The notes: generated by a model not told the origin, from the sequence alone. Numbered from the stretch's first letter, positions 1 to 24,893 are shown. The stretch: DNA of 38,371 nucleotides from Solirubrobacteraceae bacterium (GCA_034664545.1 JAXDHK010000340.1:1-38371); one strand, 5' to 3'. Made by a program: numbers and translations.

Positions 1-1
1 C

Positions 2-163
2 GGCTTTCTCACCCGGATGGTCCAGGACGAGTCGCTCACCGGCTACGTCCTCGACGTCAGCGCCACCCGTGCCCAGGAGATCGCCGGAGAGGTCAGCGTC
101 GTGATGGTCCTCCAGCCGACGTTCAGCATCGAGTACGTCCGCGTCGTCATGAACCTCAAGTGA
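2..163 (+). CDS. contractile tail sheath protein, C-terminal fragment (5' end outside window)
   Basis: The frame is open from the window edge to TGA 161-163 (...VMVLQPTFSIEYVRVVMNLK*). Its QP-x-F/Y-x-x-E-Y/F-V/I-x-V tail resembles the C-terminus of the complete sheath at 24894-26879 (...GVQPVYPAEFIVVRIGI...). A tube-sized gene follows directly. Confidence 0.55.
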   Translation, partial: GFLTRMVQDESLTGYVLDVSATRAQEIAGEVSVVMVLQPTFSIEYVRVVMNLK

Positions 164-179
164 GGGTCCAGGAGGCCTG

Positions 180-680
180 ATGCCCAACAACGTGTTCAAA
201 GCCATCGACGCCGCCCTCGTGTTCGCCGTCGACGACGCCAGCTCACCCGAGGGTGCCGCCGCCGACAGCCTGATCTCCAACTACGACCTCGCCAACGTCG
301 TCGGCCGGCTCACCGACGTCACCGTCAATGTCACCAGTGCCATCCGGCCGTTCTTCGAGCTCGGCCAGCGCTACCCGACCCAGCTGCGGCCCGGGGTCGT
401 CCACGTCACCGGCACCGCCGGGCGCGCCCATGTGAACGGAGCGCTCCTACGCCTCCTGCTCGGTGACGGGGCCGCCAGCCCCCCCGGCGCGGCGAACTTC
501 GTCCAGCCGGCCCTGAACATAGTGACGACGCTCAAGGACCCGTCCTTTCCCGACAACCAGACCCGGGTCACCGTGTTCGGGGCCAAGTTCGCCTCCTGGA
601 CCTACCACATCCCGAGTGATGACTTCGTGATGGAGTCGGTCGCCTTCCAGGCGCTCCGTGTCTCCTTCGAAGAGAAGTGA
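180..680 (+). CDS. tail tube protein (cluster 1; not gp19-like, possibly XkdM/phage-tube type)
   Basis: 166-aa ORF with ATG 180 preceded by AGGAGG (170-175). It sits immediately after the sheath and before the chaperone. Size, position and beta-rich composition fit a tube protein. The family was not recognised by motif. Confidence 0.55.
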   Translation: MPNNVFKAIDAALVFAVDDASSPEGAAADSLISNYDLANVVGRLTDVTVNVTSAIRPFFELGQRYPTQLRPGVVHVTGTAGRAHVNGALLRLLLGDGAASPPGAANFVQPALNIVTTLKDPSFPDNQTRVTVFGAKFASWTYHIPSDDFVMESVAFQALRVSFEEK

Positions 681-683
681 TAC

Positions 684-1199
684 GTGCCGGTGTCCGCGTC
701 GGTGACCGAGGCCTCACTCTCGGCCCAGGATCTCCTGGGTCCGAGCACGCTGGTCCACGACATCCCGGTCCCCCCCGCGGTCCTCCGGCCGGGGCTTGAC
801 GTCGACCCCGGCTCACCAATCCGTCACGTCCGCCTCAGGCCGCTGACGGTGGCCACCCTCACCACCATCTCCCGGGCCGCCCGGGAGGACCCGAGCCTGG
901 TTCCGCTCCTCATGATCAAGGAGTCCCTGGTCGAGCCCGAGCTCGGACTCGACGGCGTCCGCCGGCTCCACGTCGGCCTCGTCCAGTTCCTCGTCAGCCG
1001 GATCAACCTGATCTCCGGCCTCACGGCTGACGGACAGGCCCTCGACGACGCCGTCGCCTCCCCCGCCGGCCAGATGCACGTCCTCCTCGCCCGCCATTTC
1101 GGCTGGACACCAGACCAGGTCGCCCAGCTCACCCCCGGGCAGGTGGCCGTCTACCTCGCCGGGGTCAGCCGCCTCCTCGACCTCGGCGCTGGCGCATGA
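684..1199 (+). CDS. tail assembly chaperone with fused C-terminal DUF6760-like segment
   Basis: GTG 684 lies 3 nt after the tube stop. The core (VRLRPLTVATL...LVQFLVSRINLISG) parallels the cluster-2 chaperone 27328-27711 (VMRLATAADE...LAHLQDLYNAIN). The C-terminal VLLARHFGWTPDQVAQLTPGQVAVYLAGVSRL aligns without gaps to AYLAYHLHWSHAELMHLDHRSRRGWVEQVSAL of the small ORF 27720-27848. Confidence 0.6.
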   Translation: MPVSASVTEASLSAQDLLGPSTLVHDIPVPPAVLRPGLDVDPGSPIRHVRLRPLTVATLTTISRAAREDPSLVPLLMIKESLVEPELGLDGVRRLHVGLVQFLVSRINLISGLTADGQALDDAVASPAGQMHVLLARHFGWTPDQVAQLTPGQVAVYLAGVSRLLDLGAGA

Positions 1200-2173
1200 T
1201 CGACGCCGTCGACCGCCTCGAGCGCACCGGTGCTCGTCTGCTCGGGCTCGAGGCGGATCTCCGCCCCCCGGTGATCGCCCCCGGCCCGGTGCTCGACGCC
1301 ACCCATCCATGGAGCCGACTCGCCCGGCTCGTCGACCTCGCGCTCGGCGACGCAGGCCCAGACGAGGACACCGACGCGATTGCGGTGGCCCGGACGAGGA
1401 GCCCGGCCGCCCACGTAGCCCTCGCCCCCATCTGGTCGCCCGCGGGCCAGGTCGGCCGGACGGCGTCACCCGGCTCCGACCCCCGCCTCCCGTCCTGGCC
1501 GCAGGCGTGGCGCGACGGGTCTCGAGCGGATGCCGAAGCCCGCGGGGACGCGGCTGACGGCTCGCCCGGCACCCGCCCACCTGACGCCCCGACCGCCACC
1601 GGGCCTCGGCTCGACCGCGCGCGCCCCAACGGATACGCCCCAGACCGCCGGCGCCCGCACGACTCGGCGTCCGGCCCCGGCCTCGGCCCCGGCCCCGGCT
1701 CAGGGATTCCCGGCCCCGCCTCCGACGCCGCCGGCCACTCCGACGCACTTCCGCCCGGCGCCGCCCCCCGCGTGCCCCCCGGTCCCATCGCCCCAGGCCC
1801 GACCCCGGACCTCTCTCCCCGACCCGGCTACGCGCCCGAGACCCCGCTGCGGCTCGAGCTCGCCCCGGACACGATCGCCCTCGCCGCCGCCCTCACCGCC
1901 CAGCTTAGGACGACCCCCGGACCCCGCCCGGGACTCACCCCCGACCTCGCCTCCAACCTTGGTCCCGCCACCGGCCCGGCGGCGGACATCGGAATTTCGC
2001 CCCCGACCGCGGCCCCGACCCCGGCCCCGACCGCCGGGCCGCCGTCGGCCCCTGGCTCACCCGCCCCGCTGACCCCCTCCGAGCGGATCCCCGACGACCT
2101 CATGGACCAACTGACCGCGGAGCTCGAGTTCGAGTTCCTCCGCCGGTACGGCCGGTCGGGCGGGGGGCGCTGA
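1196..2173 (+). CDS. Pro/Gly/Ala-rich low-complexity protein; tape-measure (tail length) candidate of cluster 1
   Basis: ATGA overlap with the chaperone stop (1196/1199) and high GC3. The 325-aa product is mostly disordered-looking. Its C-terminal IPDDLMDQLTAELEFEFLRRYG aligns with IP-RLVEEIVGELERRTRAQRERRG at the end of 27845-28552. Both genes sit between a chaperone and a tube-initiator gene. Confidence 0.45.
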   Translation: MIDAVDRLERTGARLLGLEADLRPPVIAPGPVLDATHPWSRLARLVDLALGDAGPDEDTDAIAVARTRSPAAHVALAPIWSPAGQVGRTASPGSDPRLPSWPQAWRDGSRADAEARGDAADGSPGTRPPDAPTATGPRLDRARPNGYAPDRRRPHDSASGPGLGPGPGSGIPGPASDAAGHSDALPPGAAPRVPPGPIAPGPTPDLSPRPGYAPETPLRLELAPDTIALAAALTAQLRTTPGPRPGLTPDLASNLGPATGPAADIGISPPTAAPTPAPTAGPPSAPGSPAPLTPSERIPDDLMDQLTAELEFEFLRRYGRSGGGR

Positions 2174-2175
2174 CC

Positions 2176-2778
2176 ATGCCCGTCGAGCTCGCCGGCATCA
2201 CCCTCGCCCACCTCACCCATATCGCCACGACCGAGGGCGCCCGGATCGTCCGCCATGCCGTCCCCGGCGCGACGGGAGATCTTCAGCAGTCGCTCGGCCG
2301 GCCATCCGTCGAGGTCGACCTCCAGGGCATCTTCTACGGCCCCGACGCCCCGGCCGAGCTCGACAAGCTCCGGAGCGCCCACACGGCGACCGACCCCGTC
2401 GACTTCTTCGTCCACGCCGTCGACGACACCGACAAGATCCAGACCCTCCACTTCACCCGGGTCCTGATCACCGACCTCCGGGTCGAGCAGAGCGCCGGCG
2501 CCCCGAGCGAATTCGGCTTCGCCTGCCGCGTCGTCGAGTACGTCAAGCCCCCGGCCCCGGCCACCGCGAGCCCGCTCGGCGCCATCGACACCAGCCTGGT
2601 CGACGCCGCCGCCGGGGCCGTCGACGGCGTCCAGGACGCACTCGCCGAGGTCGCCGGCCTCACCGCCCTGCTCGGCGGCACATCCTTCGGAAACCCGGTC
2701 GAGAAGCTCTCGGGCCTGGTCACGCCGTTCGCCGAGGCCGCCGGCAGCGCGGTCACCGCCCTGGCGAAGCTGGCGTAG
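2176..2778 (+). CDS. tube-initiator / baseplate hub-proximal protein (Mu gp43 N-terminal-like), no LysM
   Basis: ATG 2176 lies 2 nt after the preceding stop; 200 aa. The segment GARIVRHAVPGATGDLQQSLGRPSVEVDLQGIFYG...LDKLRSA resembles the N-terminal domain of DNA-circulation/tube-initiator proteins. It occupies the slot that the LysM protein holds in cluster 2. Confidence 0.4.
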   Translation: MPVELAGITLAHLTHIATTEGARIVRHAVPGATGDLQQSLGRPSVEVDLQGIFYGPDAPAELDKLRSAHTATDPVDFFVHAVDDTDKIQTLHFTRVLITDLRVEQSAGAPSEFGFACRVVEYVKPPAPATASPLGAIDTSLVDAAAGAVDGVQDALAEVAGLTALLGGTSFGNPVEKLSGLVTPFAEAAGSAVTALAKLA

Positions 2779-2898
2779 CCGGGGCATCCGTGGTCGATCG
2801 CTCGACACCGTCTCCGATCGAGACCCCCCCAGGACACGGCGCCGGGGCCGATCCCCCCGAGACCGCTCCCCCTGGAAAGCACGCCTAGGCAGGCAGAC

Positions 2899-5800
2899 AT
2901 GGCCGACCCCGCCGACCCCGCCCCCCCCGATCCGCCGTCTCCGGCGGCCGGGTCCCCGCTGAGCACCCCCCCACCGAGCACGGCGGGCATCACCGCGGTC
3001 CAGGGCCAGGCGACCGGGGCGATCGGCGAGGTGACCGGCAAGCTCGCCACGCTCGATCCCAGCCATCCGGACTCCCCCCTCGCCGGCGTCGGCAAGGCGA
3101 TCTCCGCCGTCGACGAGGCCGCCGCCAAGGTCGACGTCACCGGGCTCTCCGACCAGCTTCCGGCCGCCCTCGGGCGCCTCAACGCCGCGATTCCTCCGTC
3201 CGCGCTCGACGCCGTCGGCAGCCTCGACAAGTCCTACGACCGGGCCCACACCCTCCTGACCGGCGGCCCGCTCTCCAAGCTGACCTTCGGGCGCAAGCTC
3301 CAGGACGTCGCCCAGGAGGTGATCGGCGACGCCATCAGCGCCTTCGAGCAGGAGCTCGACCGGCTCGCCGCCGAGGTCTTCGATCCCGAGACCCTCGCCC
3401 TGATCAAGGAGGGACTCAAGGACCTCGTCCTCTTCGCCCAGGACTTCGCCGCCAACAGCAAGAACTTCCTCGCGTTCCTCTCGCGGAACCTCATCGGAGT
3501 CGCCGACGACCTCCTGGCCGAGGTGAGCTCCGAACTGGCCAAGATCCTTGCCGGGCTCGGCCCGATCGCCGCCGACGCCCTCACGGTCATCGACACCCTC
3601 GAACACGCCGCCGCCGACGCGCTGGCCGAGTTGACTCGCGCCATCGACGCGCTCGAGCGGGCCGGCGCCGCCGCCGAGGCCCAGGCCTACGCCGACCTCC
3701 TCAAGGCGCTCGACGATCTCGAGAGGTCGGCCGAGACCCTGATCGCCCGGGTCACCGACATCCTCGACCGGCTGGCCACCGCGCTCGACGGGCTCGACCT
3801 CAGCCAGGTCATGGTCGAGTACGCCGCCCTGCTCCGAGCGGTCGACATCGGCGAGATCCCGACGATCGACGATGCCGTCGAGGCGCTCGCCGGGCTCCTC
3901 GACGGACTCGCGGCCCGGGCTGTCGTCGTCGCCGCCGGCGACGAGCTCCCCGCCCAGGTCGAGCTCCTCGTCCGGACCATCGACGACACCGTGGCCACCG
4001 CCGGGCTCCATGCCGCCCGCGACACCGTCCACGCCGCCTTCGTCGAGGTCCAGGGGGCGATCGCCCAGATTCCGACCGAGGAGATCCAGAAGGGGATCGA
4101 CGCCATGCTCGGGGCGGTCGCGGCCGAGATCCAGTCCCTCCACCTCGATCAGGTCACCCAGCAGATCAAGGACGGCCTGGCCGAGGTGGCCAAGGAGGTC
4201 GACACCGCCACCTCCGGTCTCGCCGACACGGTCTCCGCGGAGGTCGAGCAACTCGTCGCCGGCATCGCCGACCTCGACCTCGGGAGCGTCACCGACGAGA
4301 TCCTCCGGGTGATCAAGGAGGCCGGCGACCTCATCGGGGAGCTCGAGACCCTCGCCAAGGACAACGTCGGCGTCCTCACCGACGCCCTGGCCGAGTTCGA
4401 CAAGATCAGCTTCAAGCCTCTCGCCGACGAGGCCATCGGCGAGATCGACGACATTCGCAAGCGCCTCGAGAAGATCGATCCCTCCGCGCTCTCGGCCCCC
4501 GAGCGGCTGGCCATCGCCGCGGCGCTGACCGTGCTCGAGGCGATCGACGTCGAGGGCCACGTCATCACCACGCTCGAGGGCATCTTCGATCAGGCCCGGA
4601 TGCCCCTCGACCAGGCCATCGATCTCGTCGCCATGCCCCTCGAGACCCTCGGCCGGTTCATCGGCGAGCTCGATCCGGCCAAGCTCGTCGGCCCGGTCGA
4701 CGACCTCCTGGTTGGCCTCGAGAAGGAGATAGACAAGCTCGACGCCGAGGTTCTCCTCCGGCCGCTCCGAGCCGAGGTCGACAAGCTCCTCGCCCGTCTC
4801 GGCGACCTCAACCCCGGGGCGCTCGTCAAGCCGCTCGAGGCGCCCTACCACGACCTCGTCGACTCGGTCGGAAGGCTCGACCCGACGGTCTGGGTCGCGC
4901 CCCTCAAGGGCCTCTACACCAAGATCGACGAGGTCATCGGGAAGCTCGACATCACCCCGCTGTTCGATGAGCTCGACAAGCTCAGGCGCGAGCTACTGAC
5001 CAAGGCGAGCGGCGCCGTCATCGCCGGCCTGAAGGGGCTCGACCTCCCGGCCCCGGTGACCGCGCTCCTGACCGAGGTCACCACGACCGTCGACGCCATC
5101 GGCGTCGCCCTCTTCGACGACCCCGAGAAGCTCGCCGGAGCCATCCCCCCCACGATCGACCTGACGACTCCGCTCATGCTCCTCGACGCCCCGTTCGACG
5201 AGCTCGTCGCCCTGGTCGGCAAGGTCCCGGCCAAGGACCTGACCGAGGCGGCGAACGCCCTCCGCCAGACGTTCGGCCCCGGACTCGCCGCCCTCGACCC
5301 GCGCGCGCTCGTCGCCGAGCTCCGGGCCGGGGCCGAGCGCCTCGACGCCCTCGACCCGGCGGTGCTCCTCCCCGGGACCGCCGCCGCCCTGCCCGCCCTT
5401 CGGGCTCGGCTCGCAGCGGCGGTCAAGGCAGCGCCCCCGGGGCGAGCGGCCGACGCCGCGGCCGTCGGGGCCCGCCTCGACCGGATCCTCCAGACGCTCG
5501 ACGCCCATCTCCCCCAGAGCGACCTCGCCAAGCTCGCCGCCGCCCACCTCCGGGTGTCGGACGTGCTCGGCCGGGCTCTCGACACGCTCGATCCGGCGGT
5601 GGCCGTCCCGCCCTACCTCGACCTCCGGCGCGATCTCGCCCGGATCGTCCCGCCGTTCCTCGCCCAGCACGACCCGCTCACCCGCGACGACGTCGTCAAG
5701 GGCCTCGCCGCCCTCCGCCCGTCGGCCCACGCCCCGCGGCTGAAGACGTCGCTCGCGGGCTTCCGGGCCGGAGTCGCACCCCTCCAGGCGCGGATCGCCG

Positions 5801-6369
5801 TCGGGTTCGACGCGCTCCTCGCCGCGATCCGCCGGGCCCTCACCCTCGTCGATCCACTCGTGTTCAAGGCTGACGTCGCCGCCGTGTACGCAGAGGTCCG
5901 GGCGAAGGTGAGGGTGATCGATCCCGACCAGCTGGCCAAGGACGGAGGGGCCGTCCTCACCGCCGTCCAGGACCAGCTCAAGGCGATCGATCCGGCCGCG
6001 ATCGGCGCCGCCCTCGACGCCACCTACCACGAGGTCGCGGACGCGGTCAAGCAGGCGATCGACGGGGTCCTCGACGCGATCGCCTCCGCCATCGACCTCG
6101 AGGTGACCAAGGTCCGCGACGCGCTCAAGGGGATCGTCACCGCGTTCCACCAGGCGCTCGACGACGCGGTCGCCGAGGCCGGGAGCCTCACCAAGGATCT
6201 CGAGAGCCTCGTCCTCGTGGCCATCGTCGACCGGCTCAAGCACTTCACCGAGAACCTCGCCAAGAGCCTCGACATCGAGCTCCAGCGGGTCCGCAAGGCG
6301 TTCGATTCGATGCTCGACGCCATCCCCCTCGAGAAGGACAAGGCCAGTGCTCCGGCCCTCGCCGCCTGA
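2899..6369 (+). CDS. large (1156 aa) Ala/Leu/Asp-rich helical repeat protein, unknown function (cargo/adaptor or alternative tape measure)
   Basis: Long ORF with high GC3, preceded by a 120-nt gap. It has a Pro-rich N-terminus followed by helix-type composition. At least 14 degenerate h-D/N-P-x-x-h motifs occur (for example LDPAKLVGP, LNPGALVKP, LDPTVWVAP, LDPRALVAE, IDPDQLAKD, IDPAAIGAA). Confidence 0.6.
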   Translation: MADPADPAPPDPPSPAAGSPLSTPPPSTAGITAVQGQATGAIGEVTGKLATLDPSHPDSPLAGVGKAISAVDEAAAKVDVTGLSDQLPAALGRLNAAIPPSALDAVGSLDKSYDRAHTLLTGGPLSKLTFGRKLQDVAQEVIGDAISAFEQELDRLAAEVFDPETLALIKEGLKDLVLFAQDFAANSKNFLAFLSRNLIGVADDLLAEVSSELAKILAGLGPIAADALTVIDTLEHAAADALAELTRAIDALERAGAAAEAQAYADLLKALDDLERSAETLIARVTDILDRLATALDGLDLSQVMVEYAALLRAVDIGEIPTIDDAVEALAGLLDGLAARAVVVAAGDELPAQVELLVRTIDDTVATAGLHAARDTVHAAFVEVQGAIAQIPTEEIQKGIDAMLGAVAAEIQSLHLDQVTQQIKDGLAEVAKEVDTATSGLADTVSAEVEQLVAGIADLDLGSVTDEILRVIKEAGDLIGELETLAKDNVGVLTDALAEFDKISFKPLADEAIGEIDDIRKRLEKIDPSALSAPERLAIAAALTVLEAIDVEGHVITTLEGIFDQARMPLDQAIDLVAMPLETLGRFIGELDPAKLVGPVDDLLVGLEKEIDKLDAEVLLRPLRAEVDKLLARLGDLNPGALVKPLEAPYHDLVDSVGRLDPTVWVAPLKGLYTKIDEVIGKLDITPLFDELDKLRRELLTKASGAVIAGLKGLDLPAPVTALLTEVTTTVDAIGVALFDDPEKLAGAIPPTIDLTTPLMLLDAPFDELVALVGKVPAKDLTEAANALRQTFGPGLAALDPRALVAELRAGAERLDALDPAVLLPGTAAALPALRARLAAAVKAAPPGRAADAAAVGARLDRILQTLDAHLPQSDLAKLAAAHLRVSDVLGRALDTLDPAVAVPPYLDLRRDLARIVPPFLAQHDPLTRDDVVKGLAALRPSAHAPRLKTSLAGFRAGVAPLQARIAVGFDALLAAIRRALTLVDPLVFKADVAAVYAEVRAKVRVIDPDQLAKDGGAVLTAVQDQLKAIDPAAIGAALDATYHEVADAVKQAIDGVLDAIASAIDLEVTKVRDALKGIVTAFHQALDDAVAEAGSLTKDLESLVLVAIVDRLKHFTENLAKSLDIELQRVRKAFDSMLDAIPLEKDKASAPALAA

Positions 6370-8728
6370 GCTCCCCCGACCCGAGGCCTCACCCGCCCCG
6401 AACGCCGCCGCCCAGGGGCGACTCGTCGCCTGGCTGGCCGACGATCGGGCCCAGCGGACGATCGCCATGCCCGCCGGCGACGTCACCGTCGTCTCGGAGC
6501 GGGGCGGCGGAAGCTCGGAGTACCGCTACGACCCCCGGGGGGACCTGGCGGAGCTGGTCGAGCCCGACGGGGGGCGGGTCGGCTTCGAGTACGACGACCG
6601 GCGTCGCCTCGGGGCCGTGGTCCGCCGGGGGGTCCGGACCGTTTTCAGCTATGACGACCACGACCGGTTGGCCGGGGTCGACGACGGCGCCGAGACCGGC
6701 GTCCGCCGCTTCCACCGGGACGCCGACGGGCGCCTGGTCGTCGTCCGCCAGGCCGACGGCACGACCCTGGCCTTCGTCTACGACGAGGCCGGCCGAGTCC
6801 GGGAGGGGCGGACCCCGACCGTGGCGACCGTCCACGACTACGACGACGTCGGGCGAATCACCGGGGTTCGCCAGACGCTCGACGGGGTGACGCTCGAGCT
6901 CCGACTCGACTTCGCCGTGGACGGCAGGCTGGCCGCGATGCGCGTGCCCGGGGCGAGCGTCCGCTACGCCTGGGACGAACGCGGGCGCCCGGCCTCGATC
7001 GGGCTCGGCGGCGACGCCGCGACGGCGCCCCTGGCCCGGTTCGCCTACGACGAGACCCGGCGGGAGACGGCGGTCACCCTCGCGAACGGGCTCGTCGAGC
7101 GGACCTGGGCCGACCCGGTCGACGGGCGCCTGCTCGAACGCCAGCTTCGGCGGGGCGACGGGCTCGTGCTTGGACGCCGGCACCGCCATGATCCGGCCGG
7201 TCGGATCATCGGGGACGGGACCCGGCGGTACGGCTACGACGACCTCGGGCGCCTGACCCGGGTCGAGGATGACCGAACCCGCGAGGTCTGGCGGTACGGC
7301 TACGACGCCCGGGACAACCGCGTCGAGACGACGGGACCCGAAACGGCCGGGGCGCGGTGCGAACACGACGAGGACGAGCTCCTGATGGTCCGAGCCGACG
7401 CGGGCGACACGCCCTACGAGCACGACTCCGCCGGCCGGCGGACCCACGCCGGCGCCGCCGACGGGGCGCGCACCTACCGCTACGACGCGGCCGGCGAGCT
7501 GCGTGAGGTTCTCCGAGACGGCGCTCTCGTGGCCCACCTGAGCTACGACCACAAGGGGCGGCTCGCCGCCGTCCGCCGGGCGGCACCCGTCACCGGGGCC
7601 GGGTCCCCGGAGGCCTACGGGCCCGCGGCGAGGACCGAGCGCTACCTCTACGGGCCCGACGACGAGCTCGTCGCGGTCACCGACGGGGCCGGGAGCCCGC
7701 TGCGCGTGATCGTCCGGACTCCACTCGGACCGATAGCCGAGATCCGGGACCCCGGCGGCCCCGACCAGGCCATCACGTTCCTCCACCTCGACCACCAGGG
7801 GACCTCCCACCTGGTCACCGACGAGACCGGCGGGGTGGCCGGGGAGTGGCGGTTCTGCCCGTTCGGGACCCCGTCCGGGGCGGGCCGGACCCGCCCCCGA
7901 TTCGCCGGTCGCGACTGGCACGCCGACCTCGGTCTCTACCGGTTCGGGGCGCGGTGGTATGACCCGGTGACGGGCCGCTTCCTCACGCCCGACTCGTTCA
8001 CCGGGGCCCCCGACGACGAGCGCCTGGTCCACCCGCTCGTCCCCGGGTCGGTCCAGCCCCTCGCCCGGGCCGAGCTCCTCGGAGGATGGCTCCAGCGGCC
8101 GCGGATCCGCAACCGGTACGCGTTCTGCGCCAACGACCCGGTCAACCGGATCGACCCCAACGGCCACTGGTCGTTCGGAGCGGCGCTGATGACCCTGCTC
8201 GGCGCGGTCTGGGCGCTCCCGAACACGATCTTCGGCCTCCTGCTCGAGATCACGTGCCTGATCGGCGAGGTCGTCCGGTGGGTGGTCTCGGCGCTCTCGA
8301 GCGGCGAGACCGACTGGGAATCGCCGGAATTCGGGGCGGCGGCCTCGAAGCGGCTGAACGCGTTCGGGCTCGTGTTCTCCGGGGGGTGGCTCGGGTCGTT
8401 CGCCAGCGTCCCGGCGCTCACCTTCGGGAACGTGTTCTTCGTCTACAAGAAGTGGGAGTCGCTGCCTGAGTTCAGCGCCCCGGGCGAGGTCCACCCGGCT
8501 GCCTACGGGGGGAAGGTGGCGATCCCGCGCCACGACACCCTCTACGAGCACGAGCTGTTCCACACCAAGCAGCAGGGTCGGTTCGGGCCGTTCTTCCACC
8601 TCGGGCTCCCCCTGTTCGGGGTCTACGAGTGGGACCTGCTGCTCAACGGACGGGCCGGGAGCGTGCTCGAGCAGGAGGCCCGCGACCACTCGGGGCGGCC
8701 GGCCCCGGCCGCGCCGGCGGGGGGCTGA
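6347..8728 (+). CDS. RHS/YD-repeat toxin with C-terminal HExxH (zincin-like) domain
   Basis: It has many YD repeats (YRYDPRGDL, FEYDDRRRL, FSYDDHDRL, YGYDDLGRL, YRYDAAGEL). It also has the RHS core end motif GLYRFGARWYDPVTGRFLTPDSF...NDPVNRIDPNGHW. A roughly 185-aa tail follows with hydrophobic segments and YEHELFHTKQQ. The GTG 6347 start overlaps the upstream ORF by 23 nt; in-frame ATG 6467 is an alternative start. Confidence 0.85.
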   Translation: MLRPSPPELPRPEASPAPNAAAQGRLVAWLADDRAQRTIAMPAGDVTVVSERGGGSSEYRYDPRGDLAELVEPDGGRVGFEYDDRRRLGAVVRRGVRTVFSYDDHDRLAGVDDGAETGVRRFHRDADGRLVVVRQADGTTLAFVYDEAGRVREGRTPTVATVHDYDDVGRITGVRQTLDGVTLELRLDFAVDGRLAAMRVPGASVRYAWDERGRPASIGLGGDAATAPLARFAYDETRRETAVTLANGLVERTWADPVDGRLLERQLRRGDGLVLGRRHRHDPAGRIIGDGTRRYGYDDLGRLTRVEDDRTREVWRYGYDARDNRVETTGPETAGARCEHDEDELLMVRADAGDTPYEHDSAGRRTHAGAADGARTYRYDAAGELREVLRDGALVAHLSYDHKGRLAAVRRAAPVTGAGSPEAYGPAARTERYLYGPDDELVAVTDGAGSPLRVIVRTPLGPIAEIRDPGGPDQAITFLHLDHQGTSHLVTDETGGVAGEWRFCPFGTPSGAGRTRPRFAGRDWHADLGLYRFGARWYDPVTGRFLTPDSFTGAPDDERLVHPLVPGSVQPLARAELLGGWLQRPRIRNRYAFCANDPVNRIDPNGHWSFGAALMTLLGAVWALPNTIFGLLLEITCLIGEVVRWVVSALSSGETDWESPEFGAAASKRLNAFGLVFSGGWLGSFASVPALTFGNVFFVYKKWESLPEFSAPGEVHPAAYGGKVAIPRHDTLYEHELFHTKQQGRFGPFFHLGLPLFGVYEWDLLLNGRAGSVLEQEARDHSGRPAPAAPAGG

Positions 8729-8730
8729 CC

Positions 8731-9804
8731 ATGGCCGACACGACCCACCCGACGTTCACGCTGACCATCGGCTCAGTCGTCGCGACGACCGACCGCCCGA
8801 TGGCCGGCCCGACCCGCCTGGTGCTCGAGCGCGACATGGACATCGCGGCCGACGGCCTCCGGGTCCACCTGTCCGATCGGTCGGGGATCGGCCTCGACGA
8901 CCCGGTGGGGCTCGAGCTCGGGTACGGGGGGTCGGAGTCGGCGGTGTTCACCGGGACGGTCGCCCGGCTGCGTCCGGCGACGGGCGGGGTCGAGGTCTGG
9001 GCCCTCGGGGGGCTGCACCTCCTGCTCGACCTCCACTGCGGGGAGGTCTACCAGGAGCAGTCGGCCGGGGCGATCGCCCACGACCTGTTCGGGCGGGCCG
9101 GGCTCTCGGCCGGGACGGTCGACGATGGGCCGGACATCTCGCGCTTCGCGGTCGACGTCCGCTCGAGCGGCTACGTCCACCTGGCGGGCCTGGCCCAACG
9201 CCTGGGCTACGAGCTCTACGCGGACATCGCGGGCAAGGCGATGTTCCATGCCCTGGGCGCGACGGCGGGCCTCGACTCGGGAGGGGGTGGTTTTGGAGCG
9301 GTGGTCGGAGCGTCGGCCCCCGTCCCGGGCGACGTGGCGGCTGCGGGCCGGGGAGGCGAGGTCCGCTACGGGAGCGACCTGCTCGGGCTCGACGCGACCG
9401 ACGCTCCGGTGATCTGGGAGTCGGTCGACGTCGGCGGCGAGAGCCCGGTGTCCGGCCAGGGCGAGAAGACGGCGTCGTGGCTGACGACCAGGGACGCCGA
9501 CTACCGGGGGTCGTCCGGATCGGGCGGGCGCCACCTCCTGGTGATCGACCCGGCGGCCCGGACCAAGGATCTCGCCGATCGGTTCGCCGCCGGGCGGCGG
9601 GCGGCCGGGGCCCGCCGGGCGCACGAGGTCCGGATCAGCGTCCTCGGCCGCCCCGGGGTCGATCTCGGCGACACGCTCTCGGTCGCCGACCACCCCGACG
9701 CCCTGGCGAATGGGAGCGGCTACGTCCGGGCGCTCCGCCACCGGGTCGGCGAAGGCGTCGGCTTCGTCACCGACATCCGCCTGGCCCTGGAGCCGGCGGC
9801 ATGA
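8731..9804 (+). CDS. gpD-like (late control D / baseplate hub) protein, cluster 1
   Basis: ATG 8731 lies 2 nt after the RHS stop. The N-terminal pattern (TFTLTIGS...LVLERDMDIAADGLRVHL...LELGYGGSESAVFTGTV) parallels the cluster-2 gpD-like protein 29238-30470. It sits directly upstream of the spike gene. Confidence 0.65.
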   Translation: MADTTHPTFTLTIGSVVATTDRPMAGPTRLVLERDMDIAADGLRVHLSDRSGIGLDDPVGLELGYGGSESAVFTGTVARLRPATGGVEVWALGGLHLLLDLHCGEVYQEQSAGAIAHDLFGRAGLSAGTVDDGPDISRFAVDVRSSGYVHLAGLAQRLGYELYADIAGKAMFHALGATAGLDSGGGGFGAVVGASAPVPGDVAAAGRGGEVRYGSDLLGLDATDAPVIWESVDVGGESPVSGQGEKTASWLTTRDADYRGSSGSGGRHLLVIDPAARTKDLADRFAAGRRAAGARRAHEVRISVLGRPGVDLGDTLSVADHPDALANGSGYVRALRHRVGEGVGFVTDIRLALEPAA

Positions 9805-10487
9805 CCAGCGCGATGGAGATCGTCCGCCAGGTGGTTCGCGAGGAGCTCGCCCAGCGGGCCGACGGCCTGCTCGGGGTGGTCACGGCGACCTACCCGCACG
9901 CGGCCGAGGACGACGACAACAACCTCGAGGTCGACGTCCGCCTCAAGCACGAGGACCTCGAGCTCCGCCGGGTCCCGGTCGGGGTCTCCCACGTCGGCGC
10001 GGCCGCCCCGCCCCGGGTCGGCGAGCTCGTGCTCGTCCGCCTGGTCGACGGCCAGATCAACCAGCCGCTGGTGACCAGCCGCTTCTACCACGCCGACGAG
10101 CGGCCGCCGCTCGCCCAGGAGAACGAGGTCCTGCTCGAGCACCGGGTGCCCGACGGGACGCTCAACCATCTCCGGTTCATGGCCGACGGGACGATGCTCC
10201 TCCAGCGGGACGTGACCAAGCCCAGGGACGGGACCGAGGCGAAGACGACGATCAGGATCGACGGGGGGACCGGGGACGTCCGGATCGAGGCGGGCGCGGA
10301 CATCGTCGTCGAGCTGAAGAACGGCTCGGAGATCAGCATCACGAGCAAGGACAAGCCGGTGAGCGTGAAGTGCAGGACGCTCGCGATCGAGGGGAACGTC
10401 GAGATCACCGGCGACCTGACCGTCCAGTCCTCGGCCGGGGGCAGCCCGGGGACGAAGATCAGCGGCCACACGATCACGGGGATGTGA
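9801..10487 (+). CDS. baseplate spike protein (gpV / gp5 OB-fold plus beta-helix)
   Basis: ATGA overlap (9801/9804). The sequence RRVPVGVSHVGAAAPPRVGELVLVRLVDGQINQPLVTSRFY is a gpV/VgrG OB-fold signature. The C-terminus has repetitive beta-strand segments (DVRIEAGADIVVELKNGSEISITSKDKPVSVKCRTLAIEGNVEITGDLTV). Confidence 0.7.
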   Translation: MTSAMEIVRQVVREELAQRADGLLGVVTATYPHAAEDDDNNLEVDVRLKHEDLELRRVPVGVSHVGAAAPPRVGELVLVRLVDGQINQPLVTSRFYHADERPPLAQENEVLLEHRVPDGTLNHLRFMADGTMLLQRDVTKPRDGTEAKTTIRIDGGTGDVRIEAGADIVVELKNGSEISITSKDKPVSVKCRTLAIEGNVEITGDLTVQSSAGGSPGTKISGHTITGM

Positions 10488-10903
10488 TGGGGGACCTCGT
10501 GCTCAAGGGGATGCTCAGCCTCGGGGGTACCCTCGACCTCGCCCCCAAGCCTCCGGGCGGGAAGGTGATGGTCGAGGCGGTCGAGGTGCTGGTCGAGGGA
10601 GCCGAGGGCATGGGCACCGTGCCCGTGCTCCTTCCCGGGCCGCCCCCTCCCCCGGCCGATCAGGGCCTCGGCGTGAAGGTGCCGGTTTCGTTCAACAAGA
10701 CGGTGACCGCCGGCGGTGCGGCGATCGTCACCCAGGGGATGTGCTTCCAGGGAAGCAGCGGGACCTGGCCGGGGATCGTCCTGCCGAGCCTCGGCAACAC
10801 GACGGTCATGGCCAACGGGATCCCGATGAACCTGGTCGGCGATCAGGCGACCATCCTCCCGACCGGCGCTCCCGCGGTTCTCGACAAGTCGGGGCAGAAA
10901 TGA
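10487..10903 (+). CDS. PAAR-like spike-tip protein with N-terminal extension
   Basis: TGATG overlap (10485-10489). TVTAGGAAIVTQG and TVMANGIPMNLVGDQAT resemble the two PAAR motifs of 31128-31406 (TVLIGGLPAAVVGD, VLIGGRPALRVGDVAG). It lies immediately after the spike gene. Confidence 0.4.
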   Translation: MGDLVLKGMLSLGGTLDLAPKPPGGKVMVEAVEVLVEGAEGMGTVPVLLPGPPPPPADQGLGVKVPVSFNKTVTAGGAAIVTQGMCFQGSSGTWPGIVLPSLGNTTVMANGIPMNLVGDQATILPTGAPAVLDKSGQK

Positions 10904-11688
10904 CGGCGGTCGGGCTCGAGATCGTCAAGCCGGTCCACGACAGCGTCGTCCGCGGGACCGAGCGGGTCGAGCTCCAGGGGAAGGTGGCTCCGCTCGCGCC
11001 GGAGCTCGCCCGGGGGGTCGAGCTGCACTTCCGGTGGTACTCGAGCCTCCATCCGGGGAGCGCCGACGACTACGCCCTGACCGACTCGGTCCCCGACCCG
11101 GCACTGAGCGTCGCGGAGCCCGCCGGGCCGGTGGCCACGGGGGTCTGGAAGGACCCGCTCACCCCGGGCACCCACGCCATCACGCTGGCCGTCACCGACC
11201 AGCCGGGCCAGGACAAGGACTCGGCGGCGGCGGTCAAGCACGGCGGGGTCACCGGCGGGGCGCAGGACCCGACCCCGTGCGTCGTCCACGTCCTACGGGC
11301 GGCGCTCGCCCCGGCGGAGGGGCCGGGAACGCTCAGTCGGTCCGGGTGCACGATCGGGGTGGCCGGTCCGTCAGTGTGGACTACGAAGCCCTACCAGGAC
11401 GTCAACCGGGTGCGCTTTCGCTTCGTCTTCCGGGACGCTCGCGGAAACACGGTGGCCGACCCCGCTCCCGAGATCGGGACGGTGACGCCGGATGCCGACG
11501 AGAAGCTCGTCTACCGCGGGCCGTGGGCGCCCGACCCCGACCATCCGGGTGTCCTGCGCTACCAGGGGACGCTGCCGGCGAGTCTGGTCGACGGCCGCTA
11601 CACCCTGAGCGTACGGGTCGAGGTTGTCGGCGACGCGACGGTGTTCGACGAGTCGACCCCGGGGGTCGGGGTGAAGGTCGTCCCGTGA
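10900..11688 (+). CDS. hypothetical beta-rich (Ig-like, two-domain) protein
   Basis: ATGA overlap (10900/10903), 262 aa, high GC3. Beta-sandwich-like stretches are present (VELQGKV...GTHAITLAVTDQPG; RYTLSVRVEVVGDATV). Cluster 2 has no counterpart. Confidence 0.5.
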   Translation: MTAVGLEIVKPVHDSVVRGTERVELQGKVAPLAPELARGVELHFRWYSSLHPGSADDYALTDSVPDPALSVAEPAGPVATGVWKDPLTPGTHAITLAVTDQPGQDKDSAAAVKHGGVTGGAQDPTPCVVHVLRAALAPAEGPGTLSRSGCTIGVAGPSVWTTKPYQDVNRVRFRFVFRDARGNTVADPAPEIGTVTPDADEKLVYRGPWAPDPDHPGVLRYQGTLPASLVDGRYTLSVRVEVVGDATVFDESTPGVGVKVVP

Positions 11689-12107
11689 CCGACCGCGACG
11701 CCCTCTTCGGCGACGACCTGCGCCTGCGCGAGGTGAGCTGGGGCCTCGACCTGGTCGGAGCGGCCGGCGACCTCGACCTCGTCCACGGGGCGGACACGAT
11801 CAGCCAGGCGCTCCGGATGCGCCTGGTCGTCCGCCAGGGCGAGCTGGCGGGGGTCGGGTGGCCGGACTACGGGTCGCGCCTGCAGGAGCTGATCGGCGAG
11901 CCGAACCTGGCCCGGACCCAGGCCCGGGCGATGACGCTGGCCCGGGACGCGATCGAGGCGGACCCGCGGGTGGTCAAGGTGAGCCGGATCGGAGCGAGCG
12001 TCCCCTTCGGAAACCGCGATGTCGTCCGCCTGGACATGGACATCGACCTGATCACCGAGCCGACGCCGCTCAACCTCGTCGTCGACGTCGCGTTGGGAGC
12101 CCGATGA
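11685..12107 (+). CDS. gp25/GPW-like baseplate wedge protein, cluster 1
   Basis: GTGA overlap (11685/11688), 140 aa. GADTISQALRMRLVVRQGEL...YGSRLQELIGEP fits the GPW/gp25 pattern (compare GEDVRQAIRTILATSRGERQMRPEFGAGLDELLF in 31410-31835). It lies directly upstream of baseplate J. Confidence 0.6.
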   Translation: MTDRDALFGDDLRLREVSWGLDLVGAAGDLDLVHGADTISQALRMRLVVRQGELAGVGWPDYGSRLQELIGEPNLARTQARAMTLARDAIEADPRVVKVSRIGASVPFGNRDVVRLDMDIDLITEPTPLNLVVDVALGAR

Positions 12108-14068
12108 TCGATCCCGGCCATCCGTTCTCCACCGGGTTCGCCGACGTGATCGCGGCCGTCGAGGACCGGCTGCGAAACGGGACCGAGCAGCCGGCGAGGT
12201 GGCGGCCGGTGTTCCAGAAGGCGATCAACGCCTACGAGCTCCCGCAGGAGGCGAGCGGGATCACGTCGGTCGCGGGGAGGGTGGGCGGCGTCTACACGGT
12301 CTTCGCCCCGGCTTCGGGGGAGGTCCCGAGCGTCGGCGACTACCGGTTCGCGGACAATCGGCTGATCTGGGTCGACGGGGGCCGGCGGCCGACGGACCTG
12401 ACCCGGGTGGACGTCGAGTACACCTACCGAGAGCGCCAGTCCGGGCTGACCGACTTCAACGAGGGGAGCGTCGCCGGAACGCTCGTCCGGGCGGTCGCCC
12501 GGGAGATGACGACGATCTACGAGCAGATGGACCAGGCCTACCGGCGGGCGTTCATCGACGGGGCGTCCGGCGTCGCCCTCGACAGCGTCGTGGCCCTGGT
12601 CGGCGCGGTGCGCATCCCAACGATCAAGGCGACCGGCGCCGTGACCTACTCACGTCAGACGGCGGCTGGAGACGAGGTCAAGATCCCGGCGCGGAGCCGG
12701 GTCGCGGATCGTCAGGGACGGACGTTCTTGTCGGTCGCGGACGCGTCGATCCCACCCTGGCGGGAGGAGTTCGCCACCCAGACCGGTGGGGTGGTGCAGA
12801 CGGTCGACCAAATCGCGGCGGTCACCGGCACCGCGTCGGGCACGATCCTCGGGGTGTGGGCGGCGGCCACGGCGACCACGTTCGACCCGGGGAAGCCGCC
12901 GCCGCTCGGGCTGGTGGCCGACCCAGCGAAGCCGTTCGGCGGCGACGAGCGCACGATCGCGCTCGCCCCTCCCACCGGTGGCGCGGCGCTTCCCAACGAG
13001 GTACGCATCCGCTACAGCCCCAAGAGCGTGACCGTCGGGGTCGAGGCCGCCGTGGCCGGACCGGAGAGCAACGTCCCGGCGGGGACCGTCATCGTCATGC
13101 CGACTCCTCCTACCGGGATCAGCGGCGTAACCAACGAAGCGCCGATCGATGGGGGTCGGGTTGCCGAGACCGACGACCGTCTCCGCGAGCGGGCCAAGCA
13201 CGCGCTCGAGCGCGCGGGAAACGCCACGATCGGAGCGCTGCGGTTCGCCGTCCTCGGGATCGAGGGCGTAGACGAGGTCCAGGTCGTCGACTTCGCCGCC
13301 GACAGCACGCTCCCTCCCGGGGAGGTCCGGCTGCGCATCTCGGCCGCCCACCCCGACCTGGTGCGCGGGGGGGTCGAACGCGTGGTCGACGTGACGCGGG
13401 CGGCTGGGGTGCGGGTCACGATCGACGTGATCGAGACGGTGCTGGTCACTGGACGGTTCGTCCTCGTCCCGGACGTCGACGGGGCGCCGGGGGCGAAGGA
13501 CCAATTCATCGAGGCGGTGATCGCTGCCATGCTCGCCCTCCCGGTCGGGGCGCCGCTGCAGGCGCGCCGGCTGAACGCGCTCGCCTTCGGGATCGGCGGG
13601 CTCGCGGACGTGGTCGAGGCGCAGCTGACCACCGTCGGCGGGGTTCCCGCTCCGGATCCGCTCGTCGTCGATCCCGGTCGGGTCGTGCGTCCGGACCAGG
13701 CTCACCTCGGCACCATGCTGCTAGAGCGGCTCGAGGCGACGGTCAAGACGCCCGGGACACCGGAGATCACGGTGCGACTCCTCGACGCCGCGGGCACGGC
13801 GATGGCGGCGCAGCGCGTGGTCGGGCTCGACGCGTCGGTCGAGATCAGCGCGAGGCTGAAGACGTCGGCGACGCGCGCGCCCGAGATCGTGGGCACGTTC
13901 GCCGGCCGGTTGACGTTCGATCGGTCCACCGAGGCGACGCTCGAGGTGACGGCCGCGAACGCTCCGAACTTCCGACCCGACGATCACGATCCGACCGTCA
14001 CCGTCAAGATCGCCGCGAGCGCCTACCCCGGGCTCTTGCCGGCCACCACCCTCCTGGGGCTGAGGTAG
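12104..14068 (+). CDS. baseplate J-like protein (gp6/gpJ family), cluster 1
   Basis: ATGA overlap (12104/12107), 654 aa. It contains FNEGSVAGTLVRAVAREMTTIYEQMDQAYRRAFIDGASGVALDSVVALVG, typical of the Baseplate_J core. It sits between the gp25-like and gpI-like genes. Confidence 0.7.
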   Translation: MIDPGHPFSTGFADVIAAVEDRLRNGTEQPARWRPVFQKAINAYELPQEASGITSVAGRVGGVYTVFAPASGEVPSVGDYRFADNRLIWVDGGRRPTDLTRVDVEYTYRERQSGLTDFNEGSVAGTLVRAVAREMTTIYEQMDQAYRRAFIDGASGVALDSVVALVGAVRIPTIKATGAVTYSRQTAAGDEVKIPARSRVADRQGRTFLSVADASIPPWREEFATQTGGVVQTVDQIAAVTGTASGTILGVWAAATATTFDPGKPPPLGLVADPAKPFGGDERTIALAPPTGGAALPNEVRIRYSPKSVTVGVEAAVAGPESNVPAGTVIVMPTPPTGISGVTNEAPIDGGRVAETDDRLRERAKHALERAGNATIGALRFAVLGIEGVDEVQVVDFAADSTLPPGEVRLRISAAHPDLVRGGVERVVDVTRAAGVRVTIDVIETVLVTGRFVLVPDVDGAPGAKDQFIEAVIAAMLALPVGAPLQARRLNALAFGIGGLADVVEAQLTTVGGVPAPDPLVVDPGRVVRPDQAHLGTMLLERLEATVKTPGTPEITVRLLDAAGTAMAAQRVVGLDASVEISARLKTSATRAPEIVGTFAGRLTFDRSTEATLEVTAANAPNFRPDDHDPTVTVKIAASAYPGLLPATTLLGLR

Positions 14069-14073
14069 CCGGC

Positions 14074-15447: not shown

Positions 15448-15459
15448 GAGGAGAGCACC

Positions 15460-15951
15460 TTGCTTGAACGTACGGACATGCGCGGCGCGGTAGTGGTCGA
15501 GCTTTCGGACCGCTCGGGGACGGTAGTCCATAGGCAGCGTCAGGGGAACCGGATCGTCCTCAGCGGAAGGCGCCTGGTCGCGGACATGTTCGCGGGGACG
15601 GGGTCAGGGGGCACACCGACCAAGGTCACCCACGTCGGCGTCGGGACGGACGGGACCCCTCCGGCCGACGGCCAGACCGCGCTGCTCGCCGAGCGGAGCC
15701 CGCGGAGTCCGATCAGCCAGGTCGACGTCCAGAACGTGGTCGAGGGACAGGACTCCGACACGGTCCAGAGGTCGCGCGTATCGCTCACTGCGGTCTTTGA
15801 TTTCGACCAGGCGAACGGGACCGAGCCGCTCCGCGAGGCGGCCGTGTTCACCGCCGACGCGGACGGCGTCATGTACAACCGCGTGCTGCTCGATTCCGTC
15901 AGCAAGACAAACGCGTTCAAGCTAACCGTCCTCTGGGACATTGTTTTCTGA
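15460..15951 (+). CDS. hypothetical tail/fibre-region protein
   Basis: TTG 15460 lies 5-10 nt downstream of GAGGAGAG; ATG 15478 is an alternative start. 163 aa and beta-rich (VGVGTDGTPPADGQTALLAE...KLTVLWDIVF). It lies in the distal tail region after gpI. Confidence 0.45.
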   Translation: MLERTDMRGAVVVELSDRSGTVVHRQRQGNRIVLSGRRLVADMFAGTGSGGTPTKVTHVGVGTDGTPPADGQTALLAERSPRSPISQVDVQNVVEGQDSDTVQRSRVSLTAVFDFDQANGTEPLREAAVFTADADGVMYNRVLLDSVSKTNAFKLTVLWDIVF

Positions 15952-15965
15952 AGCTAAGGAGCCCC

Positions 15966-24879: not shown

Positions 24880-24893
24880 AGCCAAGGAGAGCC

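Follow-up and report, generated by a model that had tools for sequence, protein, structure and literature searches.

A conserved helical-protein and RHS gene pair between the tube initiator and baseplate hub of a predicted tailocin-like gene cluster from a Solirubrobacteraceae bacterium

The gene pair and its conservation

The stretch analyzed here, referred to as the window, comprises 38,371 nucleotides (nt) of DNA from a Solirubrobacteraceae bacterium (GCA_034664545.1, JAXDHK010000340.1:1-38371), with a GC content of 72% and with every real gene on the plus strand, to which all window coordinates below refer. It opens with a cluster of contractile-tail genes (cluster 1), and our subject is a pair of large genes in the structural core of that cluster, between the genes for the tube initiator (2176-2778) and the baseplate hub (8731-9804): a helical gene (2899-6369, ATG start), encoding a protein of 1156 amino acids (aa), and an RHS gene (6347-8728, GTG start), encoding a protein of 793 aa. 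An earlier model-made reading of this DNA, the sequence-only reading, had described the pair as an insertion, the RHS protein as a toxin cargo around which a tail-like particle is built, and the helical giant as a possible adaptor, chaperone or co-cargo. The geometry it gave is present in the sequence: both open reading frames (ORFs) occur at these positions and overlap by 23 nt (6347-6369), the initiator and helical genes are separated by a 120-nt gap (2779-2898), and the TGA stop of the RHS gene (8726-8728) is followed by 'cc' and then by the hub ATG at 8731, a spacing of 2 nt. At the corresponding junction of a second tail-like cluster in the window (cluster 2), the sequence GTGA at 29238-29241 belongs both to the initiator stop and to the hub GTG, a 4-nt overlap. 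The domain labels given earlier to the two initiators (2176-2778 and 28549-29241), the hub and the RHS gene also hold, as judged by Pfam, PHROG and NCBIfam matches.

Frame analysis of GC content at third codon positions (GC3), with values of 0.94 for the helical ORF and 0.91 for the RHS ORF, supports both as real genes, and an artefact of high GC content was ruled out by these values together with hundreds of homologues. No in-frame ATG, GTG or TTG lies upstream of 2899 within the 120-nt gap, and a scan for promoter- or terminator-like sites in or around it gave nothing above chance. The public gene call of the RHS protein (P0292, 753 aa) begins at Met41 (nt 6467); the GTG start at 6347, and with it the overlap, is supported because RHS orthologues align from residue ~12-25, and no alternative start codon is present in between. 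The public call starts 40 codons too late, which removes a conserved N-terminal helix and masks the overlap with the helical gene.

Related genomic contexts were gathered by way of the initiator and RHS proteins and of DNA scans. What recurs in them is the order sheath, tube, chaperone, a protein of ~310-370 aa, initiator (~198 aa), helical protein (~1125-1156 aa), RHS protein (719-1398 aa), hub and spike, and it is kept in loci L001, L003 (Solirubrobacter), L004/5 (Ideonella), L006 (Spirulina), L007, L008 (Chloroflexia), L010, L011 (Caldilineales), L015 (Pyxidicoccus), L018-L020 and L025, and in the P0013 contig. Named carriers include Solirubrobacter ginsenosidimutans, a Solirubrobacteraceae metagenome-assembled genome (MAG), Ideonella azotifigens and Pyxidicoccus sp. 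MSG2, together with Spirulina, Chloroflexia and Caldilineales MAGs and several metagenome contigs; a Burkholderiales MAG contig (L013) shows the same order up to the helical gene, where the contig ends. The RHS gene stands within the structural operon in at least 15 related loci, and RHS orthologues are named also from Pyrinomonadaceae, Rubrobacter and Longimicrobium. At least seven phyla are represented (Actinomycetota, Chloroflexota, Cyanobacteriota, Pseudomonadota, Myxococcota, Acidobacteriota and Gemmatimonadota), with a divergent relative in Bacteroidota, and across phyla the pair occupies the same junction at 31-40% identity for the helical protein and 42-59% for the RHS protein. All loci examined have tight helical-RHS and RHS-hub junctions, ranging from a 26-nt overlap to a 45-nt gap, and the arrangement shows a putative translational coupling of the helical, RHS and hub genes. 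Orthologous initiator-helical junctions are mostly 0-30 nt long, versus the 120 nt in the window.

The description of the pair as a discrete, co-inherited unit between tube initiator and hub stood, and a search for related clusters with and without it found both kinds, the latter represented by five loci (L033, L021, L022, L026 and L030). In L033 (12.4 kb), the other cluster-1 genes from the tube to g269 were detected by tblastn at 40-73% identity, the gene of ~330 aa that precedes the initiator was recognised by its position and C-terminal motif, and the hub follows the initiator after a 135-nt spacer; the ~330-aa protein, recognised there by a C-terminal helix of the form ...LEFELxRxYG, is likewise contiguous with initiator and hub in L021, L022, L026 and L030. 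When the pair-less loci were searched by tblastn for the helical and RHS genes, no trace of either was found. In neighbour-joining trees of initiator, hub and spike, rooted on the divergent Bacteroidota locus L014, the pair-less clade is nested among pair-carrying clusters, which points to loss and to an ancestral pair, and this clade has diversified since that event, as its initiators are only 60-70% identical to one another. The simplest reading would be an ancestral pair whose two genes were lost jointly, as a unit, the remaining machine staying under selection. We therefore abandoned the view of the pair as an insertion, for which the sequence-only reading had itself named an ancestral core order beforehand as the refuting finding: the order is widespread, and the pair is ancestral in the rooted tree.

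The helical and RHS proteins

AlphaFold modelling agrees with the sequence-only reading on the general nature of both proteins, the first being all-alpha and the second an RHS protein, here modelled as a cocoon. The model of the helical protein, built with 39 homologues, contains approximately 45 helices, with a mean predicted local distance difference test score (pLDDT) of 74.8 and 212 residues at pLDDT >= 90, and its helix-breaking prolines are conserved. Profile autocorrelation revealed a 23-residue period (z = 6.0; harmonics 46 and 11), and self profile-profile alignment with hhalign gave off-diagonal matches at E = 3e-38. The protein is an array of ~48 proline-punctuated 23-mers, a repeat structure that explains its sub-threshold Apolipoprotein and Baculo_PEP_C matches. 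Members of the family have a length of 1138±10 aa at 18-40% identity, and the most conserved parts are the C-terminal ~40 residues and residues 500-560. A word-index search returned four matches, and family size was taken from an exhaustive profile search, which yielded 1053 representative clusters, including 378 at E < 1e-30; members carry the NCBI label "hypothetical protein". A subclass of 1294-1365 aa has an extra N-terminal extension, which in P0260 is a bona fide DNA_circ_N domain (28.9 bits), P0003 aligning alike, and such a fusion would physically tie the helical domain to the tube-initiator ring. Foldseek searches of the Protein Data Bank (PDB) and BFVD gave nothing beyond generic matches of the alpha-solenoid or tape-measure-like kind, with template-modelling (TM) scores < 0.1. 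The tape-measure families of Pfam and NCBIfam gave no match, and two PHROG tape-measure families matched weakly (E 1.5e-4 and 6.5e-4), with no stretch individually significant.

The RHS protein is laid out as an N-terminal helix, a YD-repeat cocoon, an Rhs core, an autoproteolysis motif and a conserved C-terminal domain. Pfam RHS_repeat matches at E 9.7e-28 (11 stretches at relaxed threshold), TIGR01643 (YD repeat) at E 1.5e-21 and TIGR03696 (Rhs_assc_core) at 56.1 bits (cut-off 32.5) over residues 505-552, and a family-specific insertion of ~40 residues lies between the RWYDP and DPNGH motifs. In the AlphaFold model (pLDDT 88.3, predicted TM-score 0.77), strands assigned by DSSP build the beta-cocoon over residues 37-545 (6455..7981), preceded by a helix at residues 20-35. 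This helix is conserved, and the ~36 residues before the shell have no Pfam or NCBIfam match, so that no N-terminal trafficking domain (PAAR, VgrG, prePAAR, signal peptide or TcB-binding) was recognised there. Foldseek matched the model to type VI secretion system (T6SS) Rhs proteins, to TcC and to teneurins (E 1e-32 to 1e-23, probability 1.00); the shell is small, since its best target-normalised TM-score, 0.66, is to a TcC component (4igl_B), with 0.63 to 6l7i_G. As modelled, the RHS protein is a genuine YD cocoon fold. Its orthologues form ~95 protein clusters at >= 208 bits, after which scores fall sharply to generic RHS. The autoproteolysis motif, NDPVNRIDPNGH/W (residues 596-608; 8132..8170), is conserved across 70 orthologues, with D597, P598, D603, G606 and W608 invariant and N596, P604 and H607 at least 90% conserved; it fits PxxxxDPxG[H/L] as P598-x4-D603-P-x-G606-H607 and is a predicted cleavage motif.

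The ~185 residues after this motif (residues 608-793; 8168..8725) are the best-conserved part of the RHS protein, with a mean column identity of 71% versus 29% for the whole-protein alignment, which spans variable C-terminal extensions. They comprise a long hydrophobic or amphipathic helix followed by a zincin-like alpha/beta domain, modelled as a helix at 609-651, strands within 661-699 and helices within 728-782, with mean pLDDT of 75-94 for blocks over 661-790. Within the zincin-like domain, HELFHTKQ (residues 735-742; 8549..8572) forms an HExxHxxQ metal-binding motif with E775 as the downstream conserved Glu; H735, H739 and E775 are invariant in the orthologue alignment, and E736 and Q742 are at least 90% conserved. 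The signature 'HExxHxxQ-E' was described by Zhang et al. for the PVC-metallopeptidase, which is found also after RHS arrays, often without immunity genes (PMC3482391). Both the HExxHxxQ...E motif and the topology of beta-strands plus helices match that domain (now Pfam PF13699, the core domain of extracellular contractile injection systems, eCIS), and a relation between it and the RHS C-terminal domain appears likely but unproven. A profile search of the domain against PDB sequences found nothing. The hydropathy peak at residues 610-650 is borderline (1.4-1.7), and a transmembrane anchor was set aside given this value and the invariant charges in the helix, and is retained as a rival of low probability.

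The RHS protein had been labelled a toxin; its C-terminus does not fit a toxin of the polymorphic kind, being the most conserved part of the protein and lacking an adjacent immunity gene. No immunity ORF lies beside the RHS gene here or in the orthologous loci examined, where the hub is always the next gene. In L016, a public contig that carries the cluster-1 genes and continues upstream of them, a small Imm8-family gene occurs on the opposite strand (3830-4114), ~4 kb upstream of the sheath gene and among unrelated genes, with no evidence of relation to the RHS protein. The variability of the RHS family is confined to optional extensions beyond the C-terminal domain: orthologues fall into length classes of ~720-826, 1154-1183 and 1292-1398 aa, the extra length following the zincin domain, and in the longest class it mostly consists of PG_binding_1 plus ~450 residues without known family, two members having Peptidase_C39_2. 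The long forms in L003 (4415-8311), L006 (14015-18211) and L010 thus read zincin domain, Pro-rich linker, PG_binding_1 and a conserved region of ~450 residues, which contains the motif ..GPCHWTLG.. and belongs to no Pfam family. The medium class has a different extension, also of no known family.

In two relatives, other proteins take the RHS position. L014, from a Bacteroidota MAG, keeps the helical gene and has in place of RHS a 1140-aa protein (5442-8864), followed by a Gly-rich protein of 289 aa. The 1140-aa protein is helical in its N-terminal region and contains a hydrophobic segment rich in Gly as well as a probable M23 peptidase motif (..SGDTGKSFFNHLHAHV..), with a Pfam M23 match at E = 0.015 and a weak PHROG tape-measure match. 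On the P0003 contig (JGI 3300056388), a 1306-aa initiator-helical fusion is followed by an OmpA/PG_binding_1 protein (709 aa) and, further 3', by an amine-oxidase-like flavoprotein (512 aa) and another 709-aa protein, a downstream set that differs from that of the RHS-type clusters.

The contractile machine and its neighbours

The sheath gene lies just outside the window, upstream, as illustrated by contig L016, in which a 646-aa Phage_sheath gene is immediately 5' of the tube gene. The tail tube protein of the window (180..680, 166 aa) shares 62-76% identity with its 166-aa counterpart next after the sheath gene of related loci. Next comes a tail-assembly-chaperone-like protein (684..1199, 171 aa), which holds the same position in related loci long enough to include it and whose Ideonella homologue is labelled 'Phage tail assembly protein' in UniRef; the window protein has no Pfam or PHROG match. 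The following gene (1196..2173) encodes a Pro-rich, probably disordered protein of 325 aa, at the position of the P2 tape measure gpT. Only the ends of this protein are conserved, including a C-terminal helix, ...LEFEFLRRYG, a motif that is also present in L021, L026, L030 and L033, and a gene of ~310-370 aa occupies this position in most related clusters, among them those without the pair. In L033, a relative of 52% GC, the counterpart (826-1815) is hydrophilic and not Pro-rich.

The tube initiator (2176..2778, 200 aa) is DNA_circ_N / gpU-like, with a Pfam DNA_circ_N match of 26.1 bits (cut-off 21), PHROG matches to 'baseplate hub' and 'GpU-like tail protein', and at least 146 homologues of ~198 aa. 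Beyond the intergenic gap (2779..2898) and the pair lie the baseplate hub (8731..9804, 357 aa), gpD/gp27-like with weak Phage_GPD and VgrG_rel matches, the former seen weakly in hub orthologues of related loci as well, and the spike (9801..10487, 228 aa), gpV/gp5-like with Phage_base_V, phage_P2_V and VgrG C-terminal matches and a PHROG match to baseplate assembly protein. A small conserved protein after the spike (10487..10903, 138 aa), kept in L015, L019, L025 and L033, may be a PAAR-like tip, judging by its position and the look of its sequence only; it matches no family, and its L033 homologue has no Pfam match. Further 3' are a 261-aa protein, a gp25-like protein, J, an I-like protein and three small proteins, and the cluster ends at 17375.

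The P2/Mu-like tail set is present in order (sheath, tube, chaperone, gpU-like, gpD-like, gpV, gp25/W, J, I). No capsid or terminase genes were found in cluster 1 and no lysis cassette was identified in it, and neither cluster 1 nor the complete orthologous cluster of Pyxidicoccus contains a Pvc15 AAA+ ATPase, a Pvc16-type cap or a CIS_tube-LysM initiator. In related loci and in L016, the sheath gene is flanked upstream by unrelated cellular genes. In a collection of 50,697 phage records, tblastn with the helical and initiator proteins as queries found no match, and a scan of IMG/VR found no relative of the cluster. A prophage was ruled out by these flanking cellular genes, the missing capsid genes and the missing relatives among phages and in IMG/VR; T6SS identity was ruled out because no T6SS families were found. 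To judge by its gene content, cluster 1 is a chromosomal, headless, P2/Mu-like, ATPase-less tail cluster, predicted to encode a tailocin-like particle.

Cluster 2, which extends from 21590 to the window end (38371), is of the Afp/PVC eCIS type, with an AAA+ ATPase, a Pvc16_N cap, sheath, gp19-like tube, CIS_tube plus LysM initiator (28549-29241), hub, Phage_base_V spike, PAAR, gp25 and two Baseplate_J proteins. BLASTP between the two clusters detects similarity limited to the spike and gp25 proteins. The term insertion had been based on the absence of the pair from the same junction in cluster 2, a comparison that is uninformative because one cluster is Afp/PVC-type, the other is P2/Mu-like, and only spike and gp25 are similar, the two representing different lineages. 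Two unrelated contractile tail-like clusters (1-17375 and 21590-38371) thus adjoin on one strand. Between them lie the genes for a 1038-aa protein (17571-20687) and a LuxR-type response regulator (20764-21462). The former ORF has a strong coding signal (GC3 0.93) and no Pfam match, lies outside the conserved cluster-1 set in Pyxidicoccus (L015), and could encode an effector or fibre of either cluster.

Readings of the pair and known systems

We read the pair as a two-gene effector module, a carrier plus a caged zincin, that would be an integral and anciently conserved part of a tailocin-like particle, and we regard this reading as evenly poised between right and wrong. The effector caged in the RHS cocoon would be a zincin (PVC-metallopeptidase-like), on its own or joined to a cell-wall-directed domain, and would be set free on firing. 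As its carrier or co-cargo, the helical protein would be anchored at the initiator/hub and probably housed in the tube lumen. One 23-residue repeat (helix-plus-turn) would span ~35-40 Å, roughly one tube ring; tube rings rise ~38-41 Å. The PG_binding_1, OmpA and M23 domains that recur at the RHS position suggest the bacterial envelope as the target. Of the earlier proposal of a particle built around an RHS cargo, the cargo itself is retained, as the conserved place of the RHS gene in the structural operon of at least 15 loci fits it; a recent insertion and a polymorphic C-terminal toxin are not supported. For the helical giant, loss together with the RHS gene favours a partner such as the suggested adaptor, chaperone or co-cargo over a ruler, a role that is also weighed below.

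Several points weigh against the effector-module reading. The relation of the C-terminal domain to PF13699 rests on motif, predicted topology and weak eCIS_core matches in 3 of 19 orthologues (best E = 0.2), and Pfam, including PF13699, gives no match to the window domain at E <= 10. A missing immunity gene is unusual for an antibacterial Rhs toxin. The YD shell, at ~510 residues, comes closer to the size of TcC by itself than to that of a full T6SS Rhs cocoon; its closure and its room for 185 residues are in doubt, and the 600-aa extensions of the long orthologues are certainly too big. The neighbour-joining trees carry no support values, and the pair-less clusters could hold a ruler or the pair elsewhere, as 12.4 kb of the 22.9-kb L033 contig was read. 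Finally, the helical protein has classical tape-measure traits, namely the largest ORF of the cluster, an all-alpha fold, constant length and a place just upstream of the hub, to which are added its weak PHROG tape-measure matches and the frequency of tail and tape-measure proteins among its named weak BFVD matches. These traits, the length of 1138±10 aa at 18-40% identity among them, are also the ground for a rather unlikely alternative that nevertheless carries appreciable weight, in which the helical protein is the true tape measure and the RHS protein a tape-measure-associated ejection or lytic protein, a functional analogue of the lytic domains on many phage tape measures, with both in or at the tube and hub, and the cluster is ordinary tail machinery with an RHS accessory. 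A 23-/11-residue periodicity of about one tube ring per repeat agrees with this (known tape measures have ~24-27 residues per ring), as do the chaperone-like gene upstream, the lack of any other long helical protein in the conserved cluster, and the gene after the helical gene in L014, which resembles a tape measure with an M23 domain. The gene nevertheless lies on the hub side of the gpU-like initiator: in a comparison with the P2 order (tube, chaperone, T, U, D), the ~330-aa protein falls at T and the helical gene after U, and the fusions place the helical domain C-terminal to the initiator domain, opposite to canonical tape-measure polarity. The confident, packed helical segments (212 residues at pLDDT >= 90) with their conserved helix-breaking prolines, and the absence of Pfam and NCBIfam tape-measure matches, argue in the same direction. 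Nor is the helical gene indispensable, being absent from L033, L021, L022, L026 and L030 in the parts of the contigs read, a diversified clade that keeps chaperone, ~330-aa, initiator, hub, spike, baseplate and fibre genes; the joint loss of the pair in a clade keeping the other genes speaks against an essential tape-measure role for the helical protein. The disordered ~330-aa protein would be the more likely ruler, as it is kept with the chaperone in clusters without the pair and sits at the P2 gpT position.

A structural role for the RHS protein, which we consider quite unlikely, would have it tether the baseplate to the producer's own envelope in a cell-bound system, T6SS-like or like the thylakoid-anchored contractile injection systems (tCIS), with the helical protein as a scaffold and the tether formed by the hydrophobic helix, the zincin-like domain and, in long forms, the peptidoglycan-binding domain. 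A C-terminal domain that is conserved and not polymorphic, without an immunity gene, would suit an anchor, and the same can be said of the hydrophobic stretch at 610-650, of PG_binding_1 in long orthologues and the OmpA/PG_binding_1 protein that replaces the RHS gene in the P0003 contig, and of an RHS gene that adjoins and appears coupled to the hub gene; the top Foldseek match of the RHS protein is a teneurin-like protein, and a YD shell can, as in teneurins, stay uncleaved and act as a structural module whose C-terminal domain is external. The invariant autoproteolysis motif is hard to explain for a pure anchor, however, the hydrophobic helix has invariant charges (E634, E641 and R644) at borderline hydropathy (1.4-1.7), and the invariant HExxH...E argues for catalysis; moreover, the same architecture occurs in monoderm and diderm phyla, and the module is dispensable in one clade. 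That the pair is a mobile toxin cassette, recently inserted in this genome only, is highly improbable: the 120-nt upstream gap, unusual against orthologous junctions, and the existence of clusters without the pair would fit it, yet it is refuted by conservation at the same junction across at least seven phyla together with the nested pair-less clade, and the GC content and GC3 of the pair equal those of neighbouring genes, its borders are without repeats, integrase or tRNA genes, and core genes flank it directly. The effector-module reading can also be taken further, to an unlikely and more ambitious form, in which the cluster represents a new class of contractile injection particle, partly Tc-toxin-like, with a TcC-sized RHS half-cocoon and its zincin at the initiator/hub and a repeat protein in the lumen, co-expelled. 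The zincin would be released autoproteolytically from the cocoon, alone or with cell-wall-directed domains; the 23-residue-repeat, apolipoprotein-like protein, fused to the initiator in some relatives, would line or fill the lumen at one repeat per ring; and contraction would expel the repeat protein and the caged effector through the tube into the bacterial envelope.

Among known systems, the tails of P2 and Mu and the R-type tailocins (gpFI, FII, E/E', T, U, D, V, W, J, I) share with cluster 1 the gene set and order and the absence of capsid genes. Mu gp43 ('DNA circulation protein N') has a DNA_circ_N domain with a long extension, like the fused helical variants. In contrast to these tails, the present cluster has two extra large genes between its U-like and D-like genes and a disordered ~330-aa protein at T, and it is without matches in phage and viral collections. 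In the literature on contractile injection, tailocins, tail-like particles and Rhs proteins, we came across no account in which an RHS gene forms a core part of a tail-like cluster, and we know of no RHS cocoon that is a fixed core gene of a phage-tail-like (tailocin- or eCIS-like) particle. Published eCIS surveys are likely to miss this lineage; at least one, of metagenome scale, states that clusters lacking the Cis15 ATPase or Cis6 are excluded (PMC12210884), a rule that would shut the lineage out.

A precedent for a hub-proximal effector like the pair is Tme, an effector of the contractile injection system of Streptomyces davawensis, which combines DUF4157, hydrophobic helices and a region resembling a tape measure protein, is encoded just upstream of the baseplate genes, co-purifies or interacts with the spike and tube initiator, and belongs to gene clusters spread across phyla (PMC11126660). 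Tme and the pair have in common a large gene immediately upstream of baseplate genes, a zincin-type domain, and hydrophobic and helical regions; unlike in Tme, two genes share these functions here, the zincin lies behind an RHS cocoon, an EndA nuclease domain is missing, and the helical protein is a regular 23-mer array, where Tme is predicted to be ~70% disordered. The PVC-metallopeptidase/DUF4157/PF13699 toxins of Afp/PVC-type eCIS resemble the RHS C-terminal domain in the HExxHxxQ...E motif, in the predicted topology of beta-strands plus helices, in a constant zincin domain followed by variable C-terminal domains, and in an immunity gene that is often missing. They differ in that the domain here follows the predicted RHS cleavage site and is not N-terminal, the machine has no Pvc15-type AAA+ ATPase, and the window protein does not match the Pfam model. 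The arrangement links this eCIS domain to RHS caging.

RHS cocoons themselves are known to contain the payloads of T6SS spikes and Tc toxins. The VgrG/PAAR-linked Rhs proteins of T6SS (RhsA, Tse5, Tse15, RhsP and the Advenella VgrG-Rhs) share with the present system a cocoon encoded alongside a contractile machine's hub and spike genes, the PxxxxDPxG[L/H] motif and the fold (matched by Foldseek at E 1e-29, with a query-normalised TM-score of up to 0.53). Here, by contrast, there are no T6SS genes, the RHS protein is without PAAR, VgrG or a prePAAR N-terminal domain, the shell is roughly half as large, the C-terminal domain is a conserved and not a polymorphic one, no immunity gene is present, and the host machine is P2/Mu-like. 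In size the shell is nearest to TcC of the Tc (ABC) toxins, with which it also shares the predicted autoproteolytic release of a caged C-terminal domain and the broad concept of a cocoon that docks on an injection device, as the TcB-TcC cocoon feeds the TcA channel. The system differs from Tc toxins in having no TcA or TcB homologue and in a device that is a contractile sheath and tube, docking and threading being pure inference.

The arrangement described here combines contractile tail-like particles with RHS-caged effectors, and raises the questions of how a contractile tail carries a cocoon-caged enzyme and of what role a 23-mer repeat giant plays in the tube. The natural comparison of clusters with and without the pair, together with three cultured carriers (S. 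ginsenosidimutans, I. azotifigens and Pyxidicoccus sp. MSG2), makes these questions directly testable, and a payload container built into a contractile particle may be of interest for engineered protein delivery. Should the Tc-like form of the effector-module reading be true, RHS cocoons would be a third, independent payload solution besides the tip-loading of T6SS and the lumen-loading of eCIS.

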